Below are positions 9,537 to 22,057 of a stretch of DNA of 43,191 nucleotides, in pieces. The stretch is taken from contig CAZYCQ010000025.1 of the NCBI GenBank assembly GCA_964645535.1, positions 1 to 43,191 on the forward strand. Reading direction: 5' to 3'. This stretch comes from an uncultured archaeon (GTDB taxonomy: Archaea; Asgardarchaeota; Heimdallarchaeia; Heimdallarchaeales; Kariarchaeaceae). How positions within the stretch are numbered: position 1 is the stretch's first letter; every line of letters starts with the position of its first letter. The notes beneath the pieces were generated by a model. The model was not told the DNA's origin. It did not search any database and worked only from the letters and a program-made list of their open reading frames with translations. Position numbers and translations under genes: made by a program.

Positions 9537-9809
9537 TTACGATTTTCTATGCTTCTTCGATCGAATCTTGACTTGTCCAAAGTGAATTGCACAACTGACG
9601 CAATAGGTTTGTGTTTCTCTCCTCCTTGGTAGGATGGCACCAGCCTTTCTCAGCTCTTGTGCCATTCGAGGATCGACAACACTGATATATCGAGTCCGTT
9701 TCTTTGCCTTGTCGGCAGGGACATTCCTTCCGCAGTTGTCACATTGGACATTTCCAGCCCTTCCCTTCGAACCGCCAGATCTTCCGCCGGTTCGTCTCTT
9801 TTTCGTCAT
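9537..9809 (-). CDS. rps26e: 30S ribosomal protein S26e (eS26)
   Basis: MTKKRRTGGRS, VQCDNCGRNVPADKA, YCVSCAIH...VKIRSK. Confidence 0.96.
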   Translation of the reverse strand: MTKKRRTGGRSGGSKGRAGNVQCDNCGRNVPADKAKKRTRYISVVDPRMAQELRKAGAILPRRRETQTYCVSCAIHFGQVKIRSKKHRKS

Positions 9810-9976
9810 TAAAGCATCGCCTCTTGAGGTTGCATAGGTTTCTATCCAACCCTTCCTTTTTTAAACTTCAGTTAAATGCAGATGAAAATTCATCCTACAA
9901 ATTACAGTTAGCAGGTTGTTATTTAATAGGTCACTTCACTAAAAGGCTTATCTATTATGTTGTAACAATAGATGTA

Positions 9977-12154
9977 ATGAGACCAAAAACATTACTTTTT
10001 TGGGCTATAGTGATTTCTTTTCTTGGGTCTTCAGGACTTCCTTTAACAAATGGTCTTGGACTCAGCCCAGTTGGAGCACCAATTGGAACAAAAGAATACA
10101 CACCGAAATTCGATGCATTGAATGTAAATCAGCAAATGACGTTATCTCCAATGTTTACGCCTGACAACGCTTTGGAGATCCACGCCTACTGGATTTCACG
10201 AGCAAATTCAACATTGGACGTCCAGAATCAGTACATCACCATGTTCAACACATCAAGTTCAACTACAGTTGAAGATTGGAAAAATGATCCGAATCCTGTT
10301 TTGAGAGAAATTGTCAAGGCATATCAAAGAGGTGTGTCTGTTCGAGTTCAGGTCAATGAGGATGGGGATTCAGATGATGTCACGACCTTCCTTCAGAGTG
10401 TAGGAATTCCAGTAAGATGGATGGGCTCAAGTGCAAACAATCCAGACAATGACTATCTATCTGCAACTCACAACAAGATGGTGATCATCGATGGCAAAGT
10501 CTCATTGATCAGTTCTATCAATTTCGGCGAAAATGCATTCACCCGAAATCGTGAAGCAGGAATGGTCATTCAGAATGAAGCCATAGCCGCATATTATACA
10601 TCTATTTTTGAATCGGATTGGGCAGATGGAGAAGTTCCTCCCCCCCTAGGTCCAGGTGAAGGGGTGGATCCACCATACCTGAATGATGTGGAGGTTCAAC
10701 TGTCCGGTTTTGATAGCCATACCGATATTCCAAAGGCAAACTTTACTGGAACTTACAATGTCACAGCCTTTACCAATCCAGACAATGCAAACGATGTCAT
10801 TTTCAAATATTTGAAATCTGCCAAGAAATCCATCTATGTGTCCATGTACACCATTTCACGGCCAGATTTCAATAAGACCCTGATTGATCTGAAGAAGGCC
10901 AATCCAGAATTAGATATTCAGGTCTTGATTTCAAGAAGGAGAGTTGGTGGAACTGAGAATATTGACACAGCCGCTGCCGCAAGGTCATTGGTCGAAAACC
11001 TAATTCCAGTATACAACAGTACGGATACCCTGAATTTCTATCATAACAAGTATTGGGTGATTGACGGCAAACATACGTTTGTCTATTCAGGAAACTGGTC
11101 ACCAAGAAGCGTTTCCCCCCCATTGGAAAGTGGAGACAATGCCTATTCATCAGGAGAAGCAAATCGTGATATGGGTCTTGTGGTAGCGGATGCACCGGAC
11201 ATAGCCCAATTCTTCATTGATGAGGTTTGGAAGAAGGACGTCGCAGTTGCTTCAGCATGGGAATTGCCGGTAGGTATCTCACAAACTTCATTTGAACATG
11301 CTGAAGTGGTAAGTGGAACAGTGACCCTGTCAGCCCAAGGTTCAGGCATCGAGCCGACCTTTGTTGGCTACAGATTTGGAAATGGAGATTTCCAAGAGGT
11401 TTCATCAACAGATGGATCCTTCTCAGTTCAATTCGACACCACAACCCTTCCGAATGGAATCACCACCTTTGAAGTGAAAGCTGAAACCCCATTGGGAACC
11501 TTTACAGATTCTGTGAGAATAAACGTCGCCAATTATGCATCAAGTGAAAATTGGAGGGTTTTGGTTACAGAAGTTCTTCCAAATCCGGATGCAGTCAGTG
11601 ATGCTGAAGGAGAATATTTTGAGATCACCAATGGATTTCCGTTTGATGTACTCCTAGGAGGATGGCAGGCAGGAACAGACAGCAAGTTATTGACTTTCGA
11701 TAGTAGCTATGTCATACCTGCATACACCTCAATTCTGATCGCAAGGAATAAGGACGGCGTGAACACAGGTTATGGAGTAACTGCGGATTTTGAGCTCAGT
11801 ATCAGCCTAACAAATTCAAAAGGGTATGTTCAGCTCATTGATTCTGAAGGATCTGTGGTTGATGCTATAGCTTGGGGAGATGCAGTAGCCCCAGATGGCT
11901 CCGAATCGGTCGATGCACCAGGTGCAGACGAGGCCATTCTTCGGGAACCGATCTATAGAGACACAAATTCAGCGAGTGATTTCGTGATCGGAACACCAGA
12001 TCCGAAAGGAACGGTTCCAAATCAACCATTGCTCCCTCCAGGTTCAACTGCATCACCCACGACACCAAGTGAAACAGGGTTGGAACCAGTTTCATTTGGT
12101 TTGATTCCCCTTGTTGCAGCATTGCCCATTCTTGTTAGAAGGAGGAAACAGTAA
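9977..12154 (+). CDS. Secreted, C-terminally anchored phospholipase D-superfamily protein with Ig-like and lamin-tail domains
   Basis: Signal peptide MRPKTLLFWAIVISFLG; two HKD motifs (HNKMVIID, HNKYWVID); Ig-like VSGTVTLSA...FDTTTLPNG; LTD VTEVLPNP...GEYFEITN...LTNS; T/P linker, hydrophobic helix, RRRKQ. Confidence 0.88.
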   Translation: MRPKTLLFWAIVISFLGSSGLPLTNGLGLSPVGAPIGTKEYTPKFDALNVNQQMTLSPMFTPDNALEIHAYWISRANSTLDVQNQYITMFNTSSSTTVEDWKNDPNPVLREIVKAYQRGVSVRVQVNEDGDSDDVTTFLQSVGIPVRWMGSSANNPDNDYLSATHNKMVIIDGKVSLISSINFGENAFTRNREAGMVIQNEAIAAYYTSIFESDWADGEVPPPLGPGEGVDPPYLNDVEVQLSGFDSHTDIPKANFTGTYNVTAFTNPDNANDVIFKYLKSAKKSIYVSMYTISRPDFNKTLIDLKKANPELDIQVLISRRRVGGTENIDTAAAARSLVENLIPVYNSTDTLNFYHNKYWVIDGKHTFVYSGNWSPRSVSPPLESGDNAYSSGEANRDMGLVVADAPDIAQFFIDEVWKKDVAVASAWELPVGISQTSFEHAEVVSGTVTLSAQGSGIEPTFVGYRFGNGDFQEVSSTDGSFSVQFDTTTLPNGITTFEVKAETPLGTFTDSVRINVANYASSENWRVLVTEVLPNPDAVSDAEGEYFEITNGFPFDVLLGGWQAGTDSKLLTFDSSYVIPAYTSILIARNKDGVNTGYGVTADFELSISLTNSKGYVQLIDSEGSVVDAIAWGDAVAPDGSESVDAPGADEAILREPIYRDTNSASDFVIGTPDPKGTVPNQPLLPPGSTASPTTPSETGLEPVSFGLIPLVAALPILVRRRKQ

Positions 12155-12398: not shown

Positions 12399-13096
12399 AA
12401 TTGTTGTTTGATTTTGAAACTCAATTCACGATACTCATTAAAAGAGTTCAGGAAATTGTTGAAATTTGAAATATTGACGATGGGAGTATCCTTATAGAAA
12501 CGTATTCCATGATCCCTCCATGTCAGGATGAGAGGATAGAGGGTGAAATTTTCCCAATGGGGAAATTGAAGAGGCAATGTCCCATGGATTTCATGAATGA
12601 CATTAAGGAGAAGTCGAACCCGTTCTTTTTGTTTCTCAACCGCAGCACGGATTGGGGATTGAGAAGGAGTTTTGTAACGTTTGCAATCAATGACAAGAAT
12701 TTGGCGAGATTCTGTATTTTCAGCAATCACATCGAGTTCAAGCCGCTTGTTTTTTTGACGGGGAGGAATAAACCTGAAGTTGGTTATCGTATTCCATCCA
12801 GCTTCCTCCAAGATTACGGAGGTCAATTCTTCAAAGGATTTCCAATCAAGATGCTTGACTATCTTTTCAAGAGAAAGACCTTGGTTCAGTGCATATTTAA
12901 GAAGACCCCCCAATGTCTCACTTTGCATCATGACACCATATTCCTCATCGGTGAGTGGAAAAGTGTCTTTGAGTTGAAGGAGATTTGTCTCTCCTTTTGA
13001 GAGGAAAGGACGAGCTTTTTCAAGTAGGGAGAGTACAGGAACTGAAGGGCTGACACTGATTTTGGAGAGCCATTCAGGGAGATCAGAATCGGTCAT
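12395..13096 (-). CDS. PD-(D/E)xK nuclease, Mrr-like restriction endonuclease domain protein
   Basis: LDWKSFEELTSVILEEAGW, ELDVIA, LVIDCKRY; ATGA overlap with the upstream gene. Confidence 0.8.
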   Translation of the reverse strand: MTDSDLPEWLSKISVSPSVPVLSLLEKARPFLSKGETNLLQLKDTFPLTDEEYGVMMQSETLGGLLKYALNQGLSLEKIVKHLDWKSFEELTSVILEEAGWNTITNFRFIPPRQKNKRLELDVIAENTESRQILVIDCKRYKTPSQSPIRAAVEKQKERVRLLLNVIHEIHGTLPLQFPHWENFTLYPLILTWRDHGIRFYKDTPIVNISNFNNFLNSFNEYRELSFKIKQQF

Positions 13097-14202
13097 TCCG
13101 TTATCTGGAATTCCATAAGACAGTAGATATCTCTTTTGCCTGCTGCAAAGTAGTTTGTGAATTCATACTTCTTACCAGTCAAAGAAGAAAGCACGCCTTC
13201 ATAAATGCCCATTCCAAAGTCACAGATGGCTCGGTTCGCTTCGGTGCATTTGTCACCAGGAGAGAGTGTGCAAAGAGATCTTGCCTTAATGTCTCGAATC
13301 ATGGTGACTGTGTCAGATTCAATGATTTCAGGAGTCAAAATGGCATCAGGACTGTTGCCAAAGGTTCCTTGAAGACTTTGAGCAAAAAACCGACCGATTT
13401 GATCTCCGATGGTTTTTGTGGAACGACCGGCCGCCAATGTTTTTTCTACTAGAAATTGAGTCAGAATAAGGACATTTTGTTCTGAATCATCAGTTCCTTT
13501 TCCTTCGAGGGGATTTTCATTATACCAGGAATTGGCAAACTCACTCATTACATCTTGGAGAAGCACATATAAGGTTGATAGAGGTAACTTCTGATGCAAG
13601 ATCGGTTGAAAGAGCTGGGAAGGATCGATCAGACTACTTTCCTCTGTTTTGATCGTCTGAGGCTGGGAGGGAGAAGAAGGAGAAGAAGTAAAGCCAGTTG
13701 TTTCACGTGCAGCAAGGGAAGCCGGTTCACCCCTGCTGGGTTGGATTTCAACAGCATTTAATTCAATATTATAGATTACACCTGTCGTGAAATCTATACG
13801 AACAAGTGCATCCACTTCCCTGTTTAGGAGATAATAACCAATGGCTTTCATAATGCTTTTGACAAGCAAGGTAAGACCTTGTTTTGAGGATTCCACCTGT
13901 TCAAGATGCCGGTTATTGCCTAAAACAATTTCAGCCTTTGTGGCTGAAAGCGTACGGATTTGGGCATTTTTCCAACCCAAAGACCGTAAAAAGGTGGATA
14001 ACTGTTCATTTATAGAAATTCCTTCGGCAGGAACGAAGAGGTTGCGGATGATTGGAACTACTATACCTGTAAAATTTTGACTGGAGGCGAGAGATTGAGC
14101 AGAATCCTCTGCAAGATACTGTAAAGATCTGAGAAGTATCCTGATAGTCTGGCTGGATTGGGTTTTTTCTGATCCGGTACGAGTCCAAATGTTTAGAGAC
14201 AA
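13093..14202 (-). CDS. Hypothetical protein with two V4R/Bet3-like domains separated by an S/P-rich linker
   Basis: N-terminal FLRSLGW...IMKAIGYYLLNREV; C-terminal SLC...C...ICDFGMGIYEGVLSSLTG...YCLMEF. TTG 14202 follows an AGGTGA SD; GTG 14211 alternative. Confidence 0.65.
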   Translation of the reverse strand: MSLNIWTRTGSEKTQSSQTIRILLRSLQYLAEDSAQSLASSQNFTGIVVPIIRNLFVPAEGISINEQLSTFLRSLGWKNAQIRTLSATKAEIVLGNNRHLEQVESSKQGLTLLVKSIMKAIGYYLLNREVDALVRIDFTTGVIYNIELNAVEIQPSRGEPASLAARETTGFTSSPSSPSQPQTIKTEESSLIDPSQLFQPILHQKLPLSTLYVLLQDVMSEFANSWYNENPLEGKGTDDSEQNVLILTQFLVEKTLAAGRSTKTIGDQIGRFFAQSLQGTFGNSPDAILTPEIIESDTVTMIRDIKARSLCTLSPGDKCTEANRAICDFGMGIYEGVLSSLTGKKYEFTNYFAAGKRDIYCLMEFQITE

Positions 14203-14217
14203 AGCGATCACCTAATG

Positions 14218-15169: not shown

Positions 15170-15604
15170 TTATCTTCTTCTTTTCTGTTTTTTCTTTTTC
15201 CTTGAAGGAGGATGAGTGGGTTGAGGCAAACGGAAAGTCGAAGGAACAAGTTCAAATGGATATCTGAAAAAGAGATAGAACAACAGGAATGAATACAACA
15301 GATTAATGACGTCAATACCTCCAGGTTCAGTTAATGCAAGAATGGTATTGGCAATCAGGGAGATGTAAATAAAATTGTGAAAGGGAGGCTTATTGTTAAA
15401 AATTGCAAAGAATGAAATAATTGAACCTACCACAACTACGAGCAAGAGACTGAAAGCTATAGGATCGAAAGGGAGGTTGTTTTGTTGCCCAAGCAAAACA
15501 GTTCCGACAAGAGAGAGAATCTGAAACCAGATAAATACGAAAAGCAGAATCAGAAAAAGTTTTTGTGGTTGTTCCAAAGCTGCAATTTTTAATTGTGAAG
15601 ACAT
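15170..15604 (-). CDS. Small integral membrane protein (about 4 TM helices, basic C-terminal tail)
   Basis: Four hydrophobic stretches; ends SRKKKKQKRRR; starts 6 nt after the PEPC-like stop. Confidence 0.75.
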   Translation of the reverse strand: MSSQLKIAALEQPQKLFLILLFVFIWFQILSLVGTVLLGQQNNLPFDPIAFSLLLVVVVGSIISFFAIFNNKPPFHNFIYISLIANTILALTEPGGIDVINLLYSFLLFYLFFRYPFELVPSTFRLPQPTHPPSRKKKKQKRRR

Positions 15605-15610
15605 GTTGAA

Positions 15611-18442
15611 TTACCCTATATTCCGTAATCCTGTAGTAATTACATTAACGCTTTCTTCAATACCAAGCAAAAGTTGTTTGAGATGTTCCCCTTTTCTTCT
15701 TTTTTCCATTCTCCATCGTTTCCACAGTCCAGGGAACATCAAGGAGAGCGGATCAAGAAATCTAAGACGGTCAAGTACTGCCACACGAAGATAAGAACCC
15801 TCCAATAATTCTTTATTCCCAGTAATTTTAAGCAGCATCTGCACAGTTCTTTCAAATTCCTTCCTCATTTCAGCGAAAATTTCTTTACTCTCGTTGGATC
15901 CATTAGAAGCAAAATAATTGGCGATCGCAAGATTATTCTTCAAGAGAACCATTTGCAGATTATCCAGAAGGACACGGAAATATCCCCACTCAGAATGCAT
16001 CCTGCGCAAAATATCAAGCCCATGGGTTTTTTGGAATTGTTCAAGAGCAGAACCCACACCGAAAAACATGCTGATATTTAATCGACTCAAATTCCATGCA
16101 TAGTTCCAAGATGTAGGATTGATGGCCTCGATACCCATACCCTCTTTTAATTTGTCTACTGAGAAATATGGATTGTTGGAAAGGAGAAAATCAATGGAAT
16201 CTAAGGGGGAGCATTCAAGGAGATACCGGATAAATTTGGAAGAGCCCACAAATTCTCTGTAATGCTGTGATGCCATGTCACTGATTTTATCCAAATGTTT
16301 CATGTATTCTGTGGTGAGACCTTTTCTTTTCCCGAAACGATGTCCAATTCTTTTCTTCAGAGAAGCAGTGACTACAGATTTTATATTGAACAAAGCCATC
16401 TCCACATCAGAATATTTGCTGGGAATGGCCTCCCCCACCTCAAGAATTTGTAGATCTATTGAAGTGGTGTGTGGCAAGGCTTCAATTGCAAGATTTGAGG
16501 GAAGACCTCCTCGGCCTACTGGACTTCCTCTTCCGTGAGCAAAACGGAATCTGATACGGCGTTTTGCTGCGAAATCCGTAAGTTTTTCCTGAAGAGTATG
16601 AAGAAGAAATTGGGATCTCAAATAACCGACTTGTTTAGCAAGGACAGAAAAATTGAGGAACAGGGCTTGTGTCCGTTTGCGTTTTTGGAGAACCTGTCTA
16701 TAAACTGAATTTTGGAGAAGAACAGTAAAGTCATGGAGTAAACGTATCGCAGTATTTTCATCACCGACCATAGGAACAAGATCGACCATAATTCGGTCAA
16801 CCTTAGAAGGAGAAACTTTCAGCAATCCAACTTCCTTGCAGGTTAAGAGGACTGCCAAGTAGTCGGTATAGGATTGATAATCTTCAATAATAATACTTTG
16901 AATTGCATTTGGAGAAATAACTTCAACCGCGAAGACTAGGTTTTGGAACAATTCGACAAGTCTCTCATTGGAATCCGATAACAAATTGGTTTCATAGAAA
17001 AGATGGGCACCCAAAGGCCGGATCTTGTTGAGTTCTCCTTCAATCAGTTTTGCTTTGTCATCATAATTGAGGTCAAGGTATCCTGAAATGCCATTCAGTC
17101 TGAAAACCTCATCAAGGAAATTGTGGAAGTGTTTTGCATTGATGACAAGTTCTTGAGGCGCTAGATGGAAGCCGAAAAGTCTCACCTTTTCCATAAGTGG
17201 GTGGAAGTGAGTTTGTGCGATCATTTTTCCACCGCTTCTCTTGAGAGAGGAATAGATAACCTTGAGATCATCAAATAATTCCTGTGACCGTTGGTAATGA
17301 GGACCAGAGGGGAGAGAGATAATATAGGGATTATAGCCGACCAAGCCCAAGTCATCTGTCAACGGTTCCATTCTTACCCGGTTGTTTGTCAAGGTATTTT
17401 CAAGTTTAAGTCTGATGAAGTCCAATTTCCTTCGAAATGGTTCATCAATGTTCATTTCCCGTGTCAGGGCAGCAAAGTCTGGAAAAAGTAGTTCGTCTTC
17501 CTGAAGGCTCTGGATGAGTTCTTTGGAAGGTTCGAAGAATTTTGAAGAGATTGGAAGTTTCTTGAGGAGGGTTTTTACTTCTGCAATATATTTTCTGAGC
17601 ATGAGGCGTTTTTGGAGGAACAGCACCATCAAGGGCATCCGAGGTTCGATAAGACCGTTTGGAGATGAACTTTCCAGCAAATACGAGAATTCCAAGAAGA
17701 TAGGGAGGTTATAGTCCCCCATGCTCTTTTCCAAGATAAGCATTGTACCATCATAGAGTTCCTGGTAGACTCTTGCAATGGCCTCGACAATTGAGTTGTC
17801 AAAATAGTACATGGAATTGCGCACTTTCTCGATTTCAGAAGATTGGATCAATCTCCCTTCATTTGTTCCCCAAAGGATAGTCACTTCACTTTTGATCCTA
17901 GCCCGCAGTCGATAACGCTCGATTTGGTTTCCCTTTATTCGATGAATATCACCGAGCAGGGAGAATATGGAATTTAGAAGCTTGAGAAAGGATTGTTTGC
18001 GTTTATTGAATTCGTGCGGACTGAATATCAATTGGAGGAGGGACTTATGCATCAATTCGATAAAACTTATTACGTTTATCCCTTTCTGCCGAGCATATTG
18101 AATGGTATGTTGTAGATTCAATTGGCTATTTAGTTCATCATTTAGGTACTGCCCTTTCCGATATCGGGATTCTACTAGATTTGCAAGTTCAAAAGAAAGG
18201 ATCATTGACTTGATTATAGTTCCAAGGGTTTCAGGAGGTAGTTGTATCAATTCTTTCTCGATATCGGATAAGGATTTCCAATCTTGTGTTTGGAGATAGT
18301 GATGAGCAAGAAGACGAAGTCCTTCTTCAATTTGGAAAATTTCCCGCCCTCCCTGTTCAATGATGACTTCTTCCAAAATTTCATTTATGAAATTGAAGAT
18401 TTCGTCAATTTCCTTTTTTTCGGGGAGATAGTCTTGTTCCAT
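15611..18442 (-). CDS. Bacterial/plant-type phosphoenolpyruvate carboxylase homologue, probably catalytically inactive
   Basis: 943 aa, colinear with the Ppc family: FELANLVE, EPFRRKL, FGFHLA, AHGRGSPVGRGG, GVGSALE, LDPLS, C-terminal GLRNIG; catalytic motifs degenerate. Confidence 0.88.
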   Translation of the reverse strand: MEQDYLPEKKEIDEIFNFINEILEEVIIEQGGREIFQIEEGLRLLAHHYLQTQDWKSLSDIEKELIQLPPETLGTIIKSMILSFELANLVESRYRKGQYLNDELNSQLNLQHTIQYARQKGINVISFIELMHKSLLQLIFSPHEFNKRKQSFLKLLNSIFSLLGDIHRIKGNQIERYRLRARIKSEVTILWGTNEGRLIQSSEIEKVRNSMYYFDNSIVEAIARVYQELYDGTMLILEKSMGDYNLPIFLEFSYLLESSSPNGLIEPRMPLMVLFLQKRLMLRKYIAEVKTLLKKLPISSKFFEPSKELIQSLQEDELLFPDFAALTREMNIDEPFRRKLDFIRLKLENTLTNNRVRMEPLTDDLGLVGYNPYIISLPSGPHYQRSQELFDDLKVIYSSLKRSGGKMIAQTHFHPLMEKVRLFGFHLAPQELVINAKHFHNFLDEVFRLNGISGYLDLNYDDKAKLIEGELNKIRPLGAHLFYETNLLSDSNERLVELFQNLVFAVEVISPNAIQSIIIEDYQSYTDYLAVLLTCKEVGLLKVSPSKVDRIMVDLVPMVGDENTAIRLLHDFTVLLQNSVYRQVLQKRKRTQALFLNFSVLAKQVGYLRSQFLLHTLQEKLTDFAAKRRIRFRFAHGRGSPVGRGGLPSNLAIEALPHTTSIDLQILEVGEAIPSKYSDVEMALFNIKSVVTASLKKRIGHRFGKRKGLTTEYMKHLDKISDMASQHYREFVGSSKFIRYLLECSPLDSIDFLLSNNPYFSVDKLKEGMGIEAINPTSWNYAWNLSRLNISMFFGVGSALEQFQKTHGLDILRRMHSEWGYFRVLLDNLQMVLLKNNLAIANYFASNGSNESKEIFAEMRKEFERTVQMLLKITGNKELLEGSYLRVAVLDRLRFLDPLSLMFPGLWKRWRMEKRRKGEHLKQLLLGIEESVNVITTGLRNIG

Positions 18443-18472: not shown

Positions 18473-18480
18473 CTTTATAA
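18473..18480 (-). promoter_or_regulatory. Probable TATA box for the PEPC-like gene
   Basis: Minus strand TTATAAAG 31-38 nt upstream of ATG 18442. Confidence 0.5.
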
Positions 18481-18522: not shown

Positions 18523-18711
18523 TCAGATTGAAAAAGGATTCAGACTTGAATTCAGGAGAATAACAAATCCGATCAGAACAGCTGTGAAAATCAAGGTTGC
18601 ATTTGCACTGATTTTCCGGCCGGGAAGTTCTTCATCAAAATATCTCATTAGCCCTGCACCAGTTGAAGGCATAGGGGCACTGTCTTTCTTCTTCTGTTGC
18701 CTCATCGACAT
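18523..18711 (-). CDS. Preprotein translocase subunit Sec61beta
   Basis: Basic N-terminus, AGLMRYFDEE motif, single C-terminal TM helix. Confidence 0.92.
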   Translation of the reverse strand: MSMRQQKKKDSAPMPSTGAGLMRYFDEELPGRKISANATLIFTAVLIGFVILLNSSLNPFSI

Positions 18712-18863: not shown

Positions 18864-19469
18864 CTATGAATTGTTGAGAAGAATCAGTTTTTCATCTTTC
18901 TTGATGATTTGAATGGAAGCCATCCCAGCATCTTCGATTATTGAGATTTCGAAAATCCTTGAAGGATCCGAATAAGTAACGGCATTAGCTTTTACAACGG
19001 AGAGATAATCAAAAAAACCATTCTTTGCAGCGATTTCTTGGCATTGACGAAGGACTTTCTCATCAGGGTTTATAATGATTATCGGTCGGTCAACATTTTC
19101 TAATGATTCAAGAAAAATGAGAGGGGAGCCCCGAACTGCAATTAATTTTTTTTGGTTCAATGCAAGGGATGCCGCTTCTCTGTTGAGATTTATGAAATCT
19201 TTCTCCAATCCCTCAATTTCCGTGGGGAATTTATTCACCTCACCATATTCAATATCTCCCACTGCGTAGAGGAAGTCATCGGTGGATATTTTATCGAATT
19301 TGAGGAGTTCATCTCTAACCTGCCATTTATGTCCTTTAGGGCATTTGACAAATCCATCAAAAATTTTGGTTTCATTGAAATCTCCTTGGATGGAATACTT
19401 TCTGGAAAAAGGCTCAGTTTCGTCAGCACATTTTGGACAGACCAACAGGTCAAGAATCCTGAGTCGCAT
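18864..19469 (-). CDS. Trm112-like zinc domain fused to a divergent Rossmann/methyltransferase-like segment
   Basis: MRLRILDLLVCPKC...IFDGFVKCPKGHKWQVRDELLKF is Trm112-like; C-terminal IIIINPDEKVLRQCQEIA...LSVVKANA resembles class I MTase post-motif I. Confidence 0.6.
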   Translation of the reverse strand: MRLRILDLLVCPKCADETEPFSRKYSIQGDFNETKIFDGFVKCPKGHKWQVRDELLKFDKISTDDFLYAVGDIEYGEVNKFPTEIEGLEKDFINLNREAASLALNQKKLIAVRGSPLIFLESLENVDRPIIIINPDEKVLRQCQEIAAKNGFFDYLSVVKANAVTYSDPSRIFEISIIEDAGMASIQIIKKDEKLILLNNS

Positions 19470-20590: not shown

Positions 20591-22057
20591 ATGAGTTCAG
20601 GTGTACCATCTGCTGAAGACATTTCCAACATTTCGATCATCAGAGAATCCGTGCTGGAATTTCTGACAAAAATGATGAATGAAAAAATGAATGTGGAAAG
20701 CCAAATCAGAGAAAAAACTGAGGAAATAAAGACCGAATTTACCCAAATGGGCAAATCCTCCTATACGTATGGAGACATCTCAGATCTTAGTGCCAAATAT
20801 AGGGATTTCTTCCTCGAATTCTACAAAAACTCAATACATATGAGACTAGTTGCCACTGCATCACATTACATCCGGGAAGGTATCGAATCAGCATTCGTAA
20901 AGGCGGACTTGGTAAAGGAGGAAGTTTTGAGGGAATTTCAAAGGCTTCAAGAGATAATCAGTGAGCAGATGGAAAAAGATGCTAGACTTACGGACTATGA
21001 AAGGCAGTTAATGAATCAAACAGAGACCTATTCAGACCTCCAGTCAGAAAACATCAGGCTCAATAATGAGATAACTGCCTTACGGGCAGAATTGAACCAA
21101 AAGAATGAAGAAATCGAGAATCTCAGCCTCACCCTTAAGCAGATGGAAGACCAAGTGAATGTGCTAGGTTCTCGAATGCTTGAATCCTCAGGAGATATGG
21201 AAGAAATGCAGATGGCACTTGCTGAACGAGATAACATCATTGCTCATCTTCGCAATGAGAATAGGCAAGCATTGGAAAAGCTTCAAGAGATGGAACAACT
21301 TCGGCAGACAATCAAAGAGCTTACGGAACGCGAAAGAGAATTATTGTCTCGCCAAAGTTCCGTTTCAAATGAATTTATAGAGGACCTTCAGAAAAAATAT
21401 GAAAATGCGCAGAATGAACTGTTTGCCTTGAAATCTAAGGAAGTGGAAAGTAGAGAAGAAATCAGAAGGATGAAGTTGGATCTGGAGGGGAAGCAGTTGC
21501 AGATACAGCAACTGGAAGAGGAAAACTCCACCCTTAAGAGTCAAGTGGAAAACCTCAAGACCAAAATTCAGTCACTTGAAAAAGAAAATCTTGAATTGAG
21601 GAAGAAAATTGAAGAGAATCAGAATGTAAGTGAGGAATTGAAAAAGCTCAATTCAAGGGTTGCCCTGGAGTTGGAAAATGCAAAAGAAAAGCTAAAGCAA
21701 TATGAAGGAAAGGTTTCCCTTTCCCAAGAGGAAAAAGAACAGATGGAAGCAGAGCTTAAGGACCTCAGATCTAAAGTTACTGAAAACGAGGCTAGCCTTG
21801 AGTATTTGAAGGGGTTATTGATTTATGACCAGAAATACCGTGCTTTGGCTATAATCGAAAGCCTTGGCACGGAATTGCGTATGAGAGACCTTGCCAAAAG
21901 TCTCAACCTACCGCTGGAAATAGTGCATAGGGTGATCATAGAATTGGCAGACAATGGATTAATTGCAGTGAGAAGAGACGGGAATGTTACGTATATTCGT
22001 CCGATCGAAGAAAAACGGTCACCCTTCTCCCTAGAATATCTGTTGGCAGAAGTATAG
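20591..22057 (+). CDS. Long coiled-coil protein with C-terminal winged-helix domain
   Basis: About 300 aa of E/K/Q/L heptads, then LRMRDLAKSLNLPLEIVHRVIIELADNGLIAVRRDGNVTYIR. Confidence 0.8.
   Translation: MSSGVPSAEDISNISIIRESVLEFLTKMMNEKMNVESQIREKTEEIKTEFTQMGKSSYTYGDISDLSAKYRDFFLEFYKNSIHMRLVATASHYIREGIESAFVKADLVKEEVLREFQRLQEIISEQMEKDARLTDYERQLMNQTETYSDLQSENIRLNNEITALRAELNQKNEEIENLSLTLKQMEDQVNVLGSRMLESSGDMEEMQMALAERDNIIAHLRNENRQALEKLQEMEQLRQTIKELTERERELLSRQSSVSNEFIEDLQKKYENAQNELFALKSKEVESREEIRRMKLDLEGKQLQIQQLEEENSTLKSQVENLKTKIQSLEKENLELRKKIEENQNVSEELKKLNSRVALELENAKEKLKQYEGKVSLSQEEKEQMEAELKDLRSKVTENEASLEYLKGLLIYDQKYRALAIIESLGTELRMRDLAKSLNLPLEIVHRVIIELADNGLIAVRRDGNVTYIRPIEEKRSPFSLEYLLAEV

Follow-up and report, generated by a model that had tools for sequence, protein, structure and literature searches.

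The 43,191-nucleotide (nt) stretch of DNA analyzed here, referred to below as the window, spans positions 1 to 43,191 of contig CAZYCQ010000025.1 (GenBank assembly GCA_964645535.1) from an uncultured heimdallarchaeial member of the family Kariarchaeaceae. On its minus strand lies a complete gene for a protein with the fold of bacterial- and plant-type phosphoenolpyruvate (PEP) carboxylase (Ppc) that is predicted to lack catalytic activity. The gene, the residues that bear on its function, and the adjoining features are located in Table 1. Consistent with the uninterrupted full-length reading frame reported in an earlier note on this DNA, the 943-amino-acid (aa) product matched PF00311 over residues 16 to 943 (464 bits); its score against the NCBIfam equivalog PRK00009 was 451 bits, below the enzyme threshold of 815. 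PF14010, the archaeal-type PpcA family, gave no match for this protein and none over the cutoff in the same genome. The AlphaFold model (mean predicted local distance difference test score [pLDDT], 91.7) matched solved Ppc structures along the whole chain, with template modeling scores of 0.84 to 0.88 and Z scores of 37 to 43 across 844 to 882 residues; the highest Z score was 42.8 (root mean square deviation [rmsd], 2.4; 868 residues aligned). Upstream, a TATA-like box could be read, in line with the TATA box mentioned in the earlier note, and the sequence just 5' of it, CCATAGAG, is identical in the closest orthologue with a full flank (73% protein identity). A sigma-70 promoter scan was set aside as inapplicable to archaea.

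Table 1. Location of the Ppc-type gene, its diagnostic residues, and adjoining features in the window (E. coli equivalents in parentheses)
Feature	Position	Strand	Basis or remark
Predicted pseudo-PEP carboxylase gene (bacterial/plant-type Ppc fold, complete)	15611..18442	minus	943 aa, no interruption; profile match, model, and structure comparison
Putative TATA-like box, TTATAAAG	18473..18480	minus	31 to 38 nt 5' of the ATG; read from sequence
His143 (His138, catalytic base)	18014..18016	minus	7/7 dead copies; flanking motif altered
Arg337 (Arg313, activator site)	17432..17434	minus	7/7 dead copies
Val433 (replaces Arg396, PEP binding)	17144..17146	minus	Arg gone in 7/7 dead copies
Glu470 and Arg475 (Glu433/Arg438, tetramer ion pair)	17018..17035	minus	7/7 dead copies; role per PMC7569800
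Gly560 (replaces Glu506, metal ligand)	16763..16765	minus	Glu gone in 8/8 dead copies
Remodeled GYSDS motif: Asn597 (for Gly540), Val600 (for Asp543), Lys603 (Lys546)	16634..16654	minus	Alignment
Switch loop: Arg638 (Arg581) and Arg644 (Arg587, aspartate ligand)	16511..16531	minus	8/8 dead copies
Remodeled active-site lid: Asn757 (for Arg699), Asn775 (for Arg713)	16118..16174	minus	Modeled with an ordered helix (760-766)
Lys835 (Lys773, aspartate/malate ligand)	15938..15940	minus	8/8 dead copies
Arg892 (Arg832, aspartate/malate ligand)	15767..15769	minus	8/8 dead copies
Asn941 (Asn881, aspartate/malate ligand in C-terminal peptide)	15620..15622	minus	8/8 dead copies
144-aa membrane protein (~four helices, no Pfam family, basic tail)	15170..15604	minus	Starts 6 nt after the stop of the Ppc-type gene

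Loss of catalytic residues

For brevity, we refer to the window protein and the orthologues that share its losses as dead copies; there are eight in total, one of them partial, and counts are given out of eight or seven. Residue correspondence was taken from MAFFT alignments with E. coli Ppc, and residues named in maize or Flaveria were presumed to map to E. coli numbering in the generally accepted way. The roles assigned to residues, including the aspartate/malate ligands and the tetramer ion pair, follow PMC7569800 and PMC3586729.

The alignments bore out each of the catalytic losses that had been listed from the sequence by eye, namely, the GGDRDGNP motif, Arg396, Glu506, Asp543, Arg699, and Arg713, and they also revealed that the hydrophobic pocket (Trp248, Leu504, and Met538) is substituted throughout. 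The loss pattern is common to eight copies spanning 27 to 80% identity: the three PEP arginines (Arg396, Arg699, and Arg713) and the hydrophobic pocket are absent from every one, and the metal ligand Asp543 is gone from seven of the eight. Since Asp543 is still present in the partial copy, erosion must have continued after the copies split. Had the metal ligands merely shifted, the case for a dead enzyme would have weakened, but no conserved acidic residue lies within three positions of Glu506 or Asp543 in the eight dead copies. His138 survives in an altered motif, as had been noticed before, and Lys546 is retained in 8/8 copies. The window protein is a Ppc homologue and, by the four criteria tested, is predicted not to be an active PEP carboxylase.

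Orthologues, working paralogue, and selection

The dead copies come from four genomes of the genus (one of these copies being the partial one), one genome of another genus, and three other assemblies. A scan of genome contigs with a single sequence gave no match, and one with an alignment did. The dead copies form one clade (support, 99/98) nested in a clade (99/100) with the intact enzymes P0004 and P0205, which P0206 joins. Part of the support for a single origin could be an artifact of long branches, and the new states that the dead copies share, Gly540 to Asp/Asn (8/8) and Glu201 to Lys/Arg (7/7), fit such an origin. P0004 and P0205 lie at the locus of the dead copies, with the small membrane gene next in line and genes for AMP phosphorylase and LarA nearby; catalysis was therefore lost from a working gene at this position.

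A second, canonical ppc, for which the earlier note had advised a search, is present in the same genome (C121:888-3659). It has all catalytic motifs and is 30% identical to the dead copy. The active paralogues form a separate clade at variable genomic positions, and within the core of the genus their branching order mirrors that of the dead copies. Relatives of the active paralogue include proteins named Ca. Kariarchaeaceae, and the closest relatives of the dead copy are named Ca. Heimdallarchaeota. Contamination as the source of the short contig that carries the active gene is unlikely, as its tetranucleotide match is at the 93rd percentile and its flanking genes are the same as in a sister lineage. 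The view that a large-type Ppc is atypical in archaea holds at the level of the phylum (10/301 genomes searched) and fails at the level of the family, in which 7/11 other genomes carry one. Since the enzyme is rare in the phylum and the Ppc tree roots among bacterial enzymes, a bacterial origin of the large-type Ppc near this family is likely. The genus yielded no GTP-dependent PEP carboxykinase or pyruvate carboxylase domains. On contig C11 of the genome G003, a 663-bp duplicate (L142:9610-10271; 95% identical) covers the last 43 codons of the dead gene plus the membrane gene; it is either a partial duplication or a fragment from a second strain.

Because synonymous sites are saturated, selection was assessed from the proportions of nonsynonymous and synonymous differences (pN and pS) and from codon-position differences rather than from substitution rates (dN/dS). 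Among the closest orthologues, pN was 0.12 for the one at 80% protein identity and 0.18 for the one at 73%, and pS was saturated at ~0.79; divergence was 0.08 to 0.12 at second codon positions versus 0.56 to 0.59 at third positions, and every complete dead copy has a full-length open frame. These values uphold the earlier argument against decay. In a matched pair of comparisons, the window protein is 73.1% identical to its orthologue and the working enzyme of this genome 71.5% identical to its counterpart. The two partners derive from one sample of a sister lineage, which is not proof of one genome, although the two trees mirror each other there. The similarity of these values implies that constraint on the dead copy now roughly equals that on the working enzyme. 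The dead branches are ~3 to 5 times longer than intact ones at first and later slow to the working-enzyme rate, a pattern suggestive of rapid change early on and of new constraint thereafter. Taken together, these observations indicate that the window protein is almost certainly a pseudoenzyme maintained by purifying selection.

Retained residues and possible roles

What this pseudoenzyme has kept was predicted well by the earlier note: all four aspartate ligands (Arg587, Lys773, Arg832, and Asn881), together with Lys546 and Arg581, are present in every dead copy. The claim for the activator site held in part. Arg313 is kept throughout; Arg192 (R197 in the window protein) is present here and retained in only some dead copies, and the arginine of the TNEGR motif is not conserved across all orthologues, so that the activator site is partly kept. 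When 93 polar or charged sites that are invariant in 12 intact Heimdall Ppc proteins were followed into the dead copies, 20 remained invariant in all of them, and this surviving set includes the entire aspartate site (4/4; chance, ~0.002 at the 20/93 rate). Compared with six catalytic residues, one of which is kept, the retention of the aspartate site gave a Fisher P value of 0.048. Residues 301 to 350, a helical segment that we take to be part of the subunit-contact bundle, are equally conserved in dead and active copies (0.49 versus 0.49), whereas three active-site segments are not (0.30 versus 0.73, 0.26 versus 0.62, and 0.33 versus 0.70).

The shape of the model was compared with solved structures, whose conformational states were taken from PMC8637149 for 6MGI, 1JQO, 5VYJ, 6U2T, and 6V3O and inferred from entry titles for the others. 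The rmsd of the dead Ppc model was 2.4 to 2.8 to inhibitor-bound structures versus 2.9 to 3.2 to active-state ones, with no preference in Z score. A control model of the working paralogue ranked the active state first (6MGI, Z score of 47.2; 1JQO, 45.6) over the inhibited structures 6V3O (42.9), 6U2T (41.5), and 1FIY (39.8). The lid is ordered in the dead Ppc model (pLDDT, 89 to 95, with a helix) versus 76 to 85 in the paralogue model. The models thus hint, weakly, that the dead Ppc may rest in a T-like state.

We consider it probable that the dead Ppc paralogue has been kept as a noncatalytic dicarboxylate-binding oligomer, likely an aspartate- or malate-binding regulator. Under this scheme, the protein would still form Ppc-type dimers or tetramers and would rest in or near the inhibitor-bound (T-like) shape; aspartate or malate would bind at Arg644, Lys835, Arg892, and Asn941 and would alter its shape or assembly. 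The output to a partner is the weakest step. Active Ppc would be the likeliest candidate, and co-assembly that tunes its feedback response is a tentative proposal; another soluble protein is a less likely partner, and the downstream membrane protein an improbable one. G000, G001, and G003 each carry an active Ppc in addition to the dead copy, as the P0002 lineage probably does too (same sample).

Several observations weigh against this regulator reading. In two genomes, G002 (89% complete) and G007 (80% complete), only the dead copy was found and no active ppc; for G002, a database search also returned no protein at the expected identity. The slot that holds the active gene in our genome is empty on a continuous G002 contig, which is suggestive only, as the position of the active gene is not conserved. 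On that contig (C99; L164:7951-7954), a CNNM/CBS gene abuts an amidase gene with no ppc between them; in a sister lineage (L148), ppc and a 617-aa gene lie between these two genes, and in the present genome ppc follows the same CNNM gene. That no active copy was found in these two incomplete genomes weakens the suggestion of a regulatory subunit, one of the two roles proposed in the earlier note, and leaves its repurposed pseudoenzyme as the supported part. Furthermore, with only 30% identity between dead and active proteins, mixed tetramers become less certain, and the active copy of G003 does not group with the active copies of its genus. Finally, hardly any variation is seen across Ppc proteins at Arg587 (179/179 rows of a Ppc family set consisting mostly of intact enzymes), Arg832 (178/179), or the terminal glycine, and these residues may have a structural role; His138, Lys546, Arg581, Glu612, and Glu615, near the old active site, are also invariant in the dead copies. 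Retention is therefore not specific to the allosteric site, and the rim of the old active site has not been fully released.

The near-invariance of Arg587 and Arg832 would also be expected of a ligand-blind scaffold, that is, a dead protein with a structural or protein-binding role in which the aspartate-site residues anchor the C-terminal helix and the Arg587 loop. The survivors, mostly Gly, Pro, Trp, Leu, and buried charges, agree with such a role. However, Lys773 (163/179 rows) and Asn881 (153/179) vary in active enzymes and thus are not needed for the fold, yet both are present in 8/8 dead copies while 73/93 comparable polar sites are not fixed. This argues against a purely structural reason for their retention, and we regard the scaffold as unlikely.

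Somewhat less probable still is a neofunctionalized metal-free enzyme or new ligand site, in which His143, Lys603, Arg638, Arg644, Glu668, and Glu671 would form a smaller anion site on the barrel and act on something other than PEP. All six are invariant across the dead copies, the changes at Gly540 and Glu201 are shared new states, and the branches are long at first before returning to the working-enzyme rate. Against this, the residues that replace Arg396, Glu506, Asp543, Arg699, and Arg713 vary freely among the dead copies, unlike those of a new catalytic site, and the two sub-clades have different His138 motifs and lids. Gly540 is likewise changed to Asp in P0089, a degenerate bacterial Ppc unrelated to these copies, so the change may simply plug the pocket.

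A version of the regulator reading that we judge improbable has the dead Ppc binding the cytoplasmic face or the basic tail of the presumably cotranscribed membrane protein, through which it would relay a dicarboxylate signal. The membrane gene, for which Atlas and Pfam searches found no family, directly follows ppc at all ten loci read in this Ppc clade (eight dead and both checked intact; gap of 2 to 63 nt where read) and at none of the active-paralogue loci, and the other neighbors shuffle among these loci. Its ppc-linked versions have a long basic tail that the unlinked versions lack. However, the gene is family-wide, and four family genomes have it at this locus with no ppc at all, so ppc was probably inserted before an older gene, and inherited synteny probably explains the link without function. 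The link is also older than the loss of catalysis, and the tail difference is confounded with descent.

That the gene is a redundant one in decay is very improbable: long branches and a working paralogue would allow it, but the full-length frames, the saturated synonymous sites, and the codon-position pattern refute it unless the closest strains show a dN/dS near 1. Equally improbable is a PEP carboxylase with shifted ligands, for although His138, Lys546, Arg581, and Arg587 are present and one partial copy has Asp543, no substitute acid is conserved near either metal ligand and the PEP arginines and hydrophobic pocket are gone from every copy. Under the favored regulator reading, the ligand sensed and the process regulated are inferred, and a new activity or a structural role is a less probable alternative.

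Other genes surround the pair. A 201-aa gene (18864-19469, minus) encodes an N-terminal cysteine motif and has no Pfam match; its homologues lie near the membrane gene across the family and directly after it in several genomes. Between it and the Ppc-type gene is a small uncalled open reading frame of ~62 aa (18523-18711, minus), whose homologue in a relative (L015:7787-7972) is a Sec61-beta gene called in the equivalent position. On the other side, a 372-aa gene (13093-14211, minus) without a Pfam or NCBIfam match lies downstream of a phosphopantothenate synthetase gene and is 74 to 87% identical across the genus core. An operon with the synthetase was rejected as a general feature, since the link holds only in that core. 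Farther out are a phospholipase D-like protein that combines two PLD domains with a lamin-tail domain (9704-12154, plus) and a 488-aa coiled-coil protein with weak SMC/Rad50-type matches only (20591-22057, plus), whose gene is upstream of that for AMP phosphorylase and of a gene whose counterpart in relatives has an NYN domain.

Precedents and significance

With canonical Ppc (EC 4.1.1.31; PF00311; E. coli 1FIY/1JQN and maize 6U2T/6MGI), the window protein shares the full-length fold, the aspartate/malate site, the tetramer ion pair, the His base, and the switch loop; it differs in lacking the metal ligands, PEP arginines, GGDRDG motif, hydrophobic pocket, and canonical lid and in falling below the NCBIfam cutoff. 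PpcA (PF14010; 3ODM) is a distant structural relative (Z score, 21) that is half the size (~500 aa) and has no allosteric aspartate site. Plant and algal Class-2 PEP carboxylase is a hetero-octamer of bacterial-type and plant-type subunits in which co-assembly shifts malate sensitivity (PMC8100219, PMC3010082). Like the present case, it involves two divergent Ppc paralogues per cell and so offers a precedent for the mixed-oligomer step. Its bacterial-type subunit is catalytically active and malate insensitive, whereas the extra copy here is predicted to be dead with the inhibitor site kept and would co-assemble only hypothetically. The trypanosome prozyme, a dead paralogue of S-adenosylmethionine decarboxylase shown by structure to be an obligatory activator (PMC5201418), is likewise a catalytically dead paralogue kept by selection beside an active partner; its fold is unrelated, and it is obligatory, while two genomes here show no active partner. 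In malic enzymes, the fold of an inactive phosphotransacetylase (PTA) domain has similarly been put to a new use, the allosteric sensing of metabolites at the PEP-pyruvate-oxaloacetate node (PMC8100219), although as a fused domain rather than a stand-alone 943-aa protein.

Degenerate Ppc proteins were also encountered outside the archaea. P0089 (L147:6001-9036; Limnochordaceae, MBE3582787.1) has Glu506 changed to Gln and Gly540 to Asp and lacks Arg713; its Gly540-to-Asp change and that of the archaeal dead copies are apparently convergent. P0132 (Cyanobacteria bacterium, MEM8804457.1) is a 1,932-aa protein whose N-terminal half, resembling by eye a P-loop NTPase with helical repeats, is fused to a degenerate Ppc (Arg396 to Lys, Asp543 to Glu, and Arg713 gone; Arg587 and Arg832 kept), possibly a use of the Ppc fold as a sensor domain. 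P0104 (Logan assembly, 927 aa) is a third unrelated degenerate Ppc (Arg396 to Lys, Asp543 to Glu, Arg581 to Gln, and Arg699 to His).

Dead regulatory paralogues (the prozyme and the malic-enzyme PTA domain) and mixed PEP carboxylase oligomers in plants are known already. A literature search in which coverage of subscription journals was mostly lacking found no dead PEP carboxylase and no relevant Heimdall PEP carboxylase paper. New here are the intact same-locus orthologues, the statistic on retained residues, the comparison showing equal rates, a possible lone copy in G002, and a hint that unrelated bacteria also have dead Ppc proteins. It is conceivable, though doubtful, that in this Asgard lineage a PEP carboxylase of bacterial type has become a receptor dedicated to aspartate/malate, with the working Ppc or the downstream membrane protein under its control, and that it may persist where the enzyme is missing. 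If unrelated bacteria have similar dead Ppc proteins, this would then be a recurrent, undescribed class of metabolite sensor.

The clade provides a rare graded series, from intact same-locus orthologues through a partly eroded copy with Asp543 to fully dead copies, and two purified proteins would suffice for a direct test of the key claims. If aspartate or malate is bound, the allosteric machine of Ppc would have been separated from catalysis, offering a natural means of dissecting the T/R switch and possibly a scaffold for a dicarboxylate biosensor. If the regulator reading is true, the dead Ppc would exemplify regulation by a pseudoenzyme in the Heimdall archaea, which are close relatives of eukaryotes.

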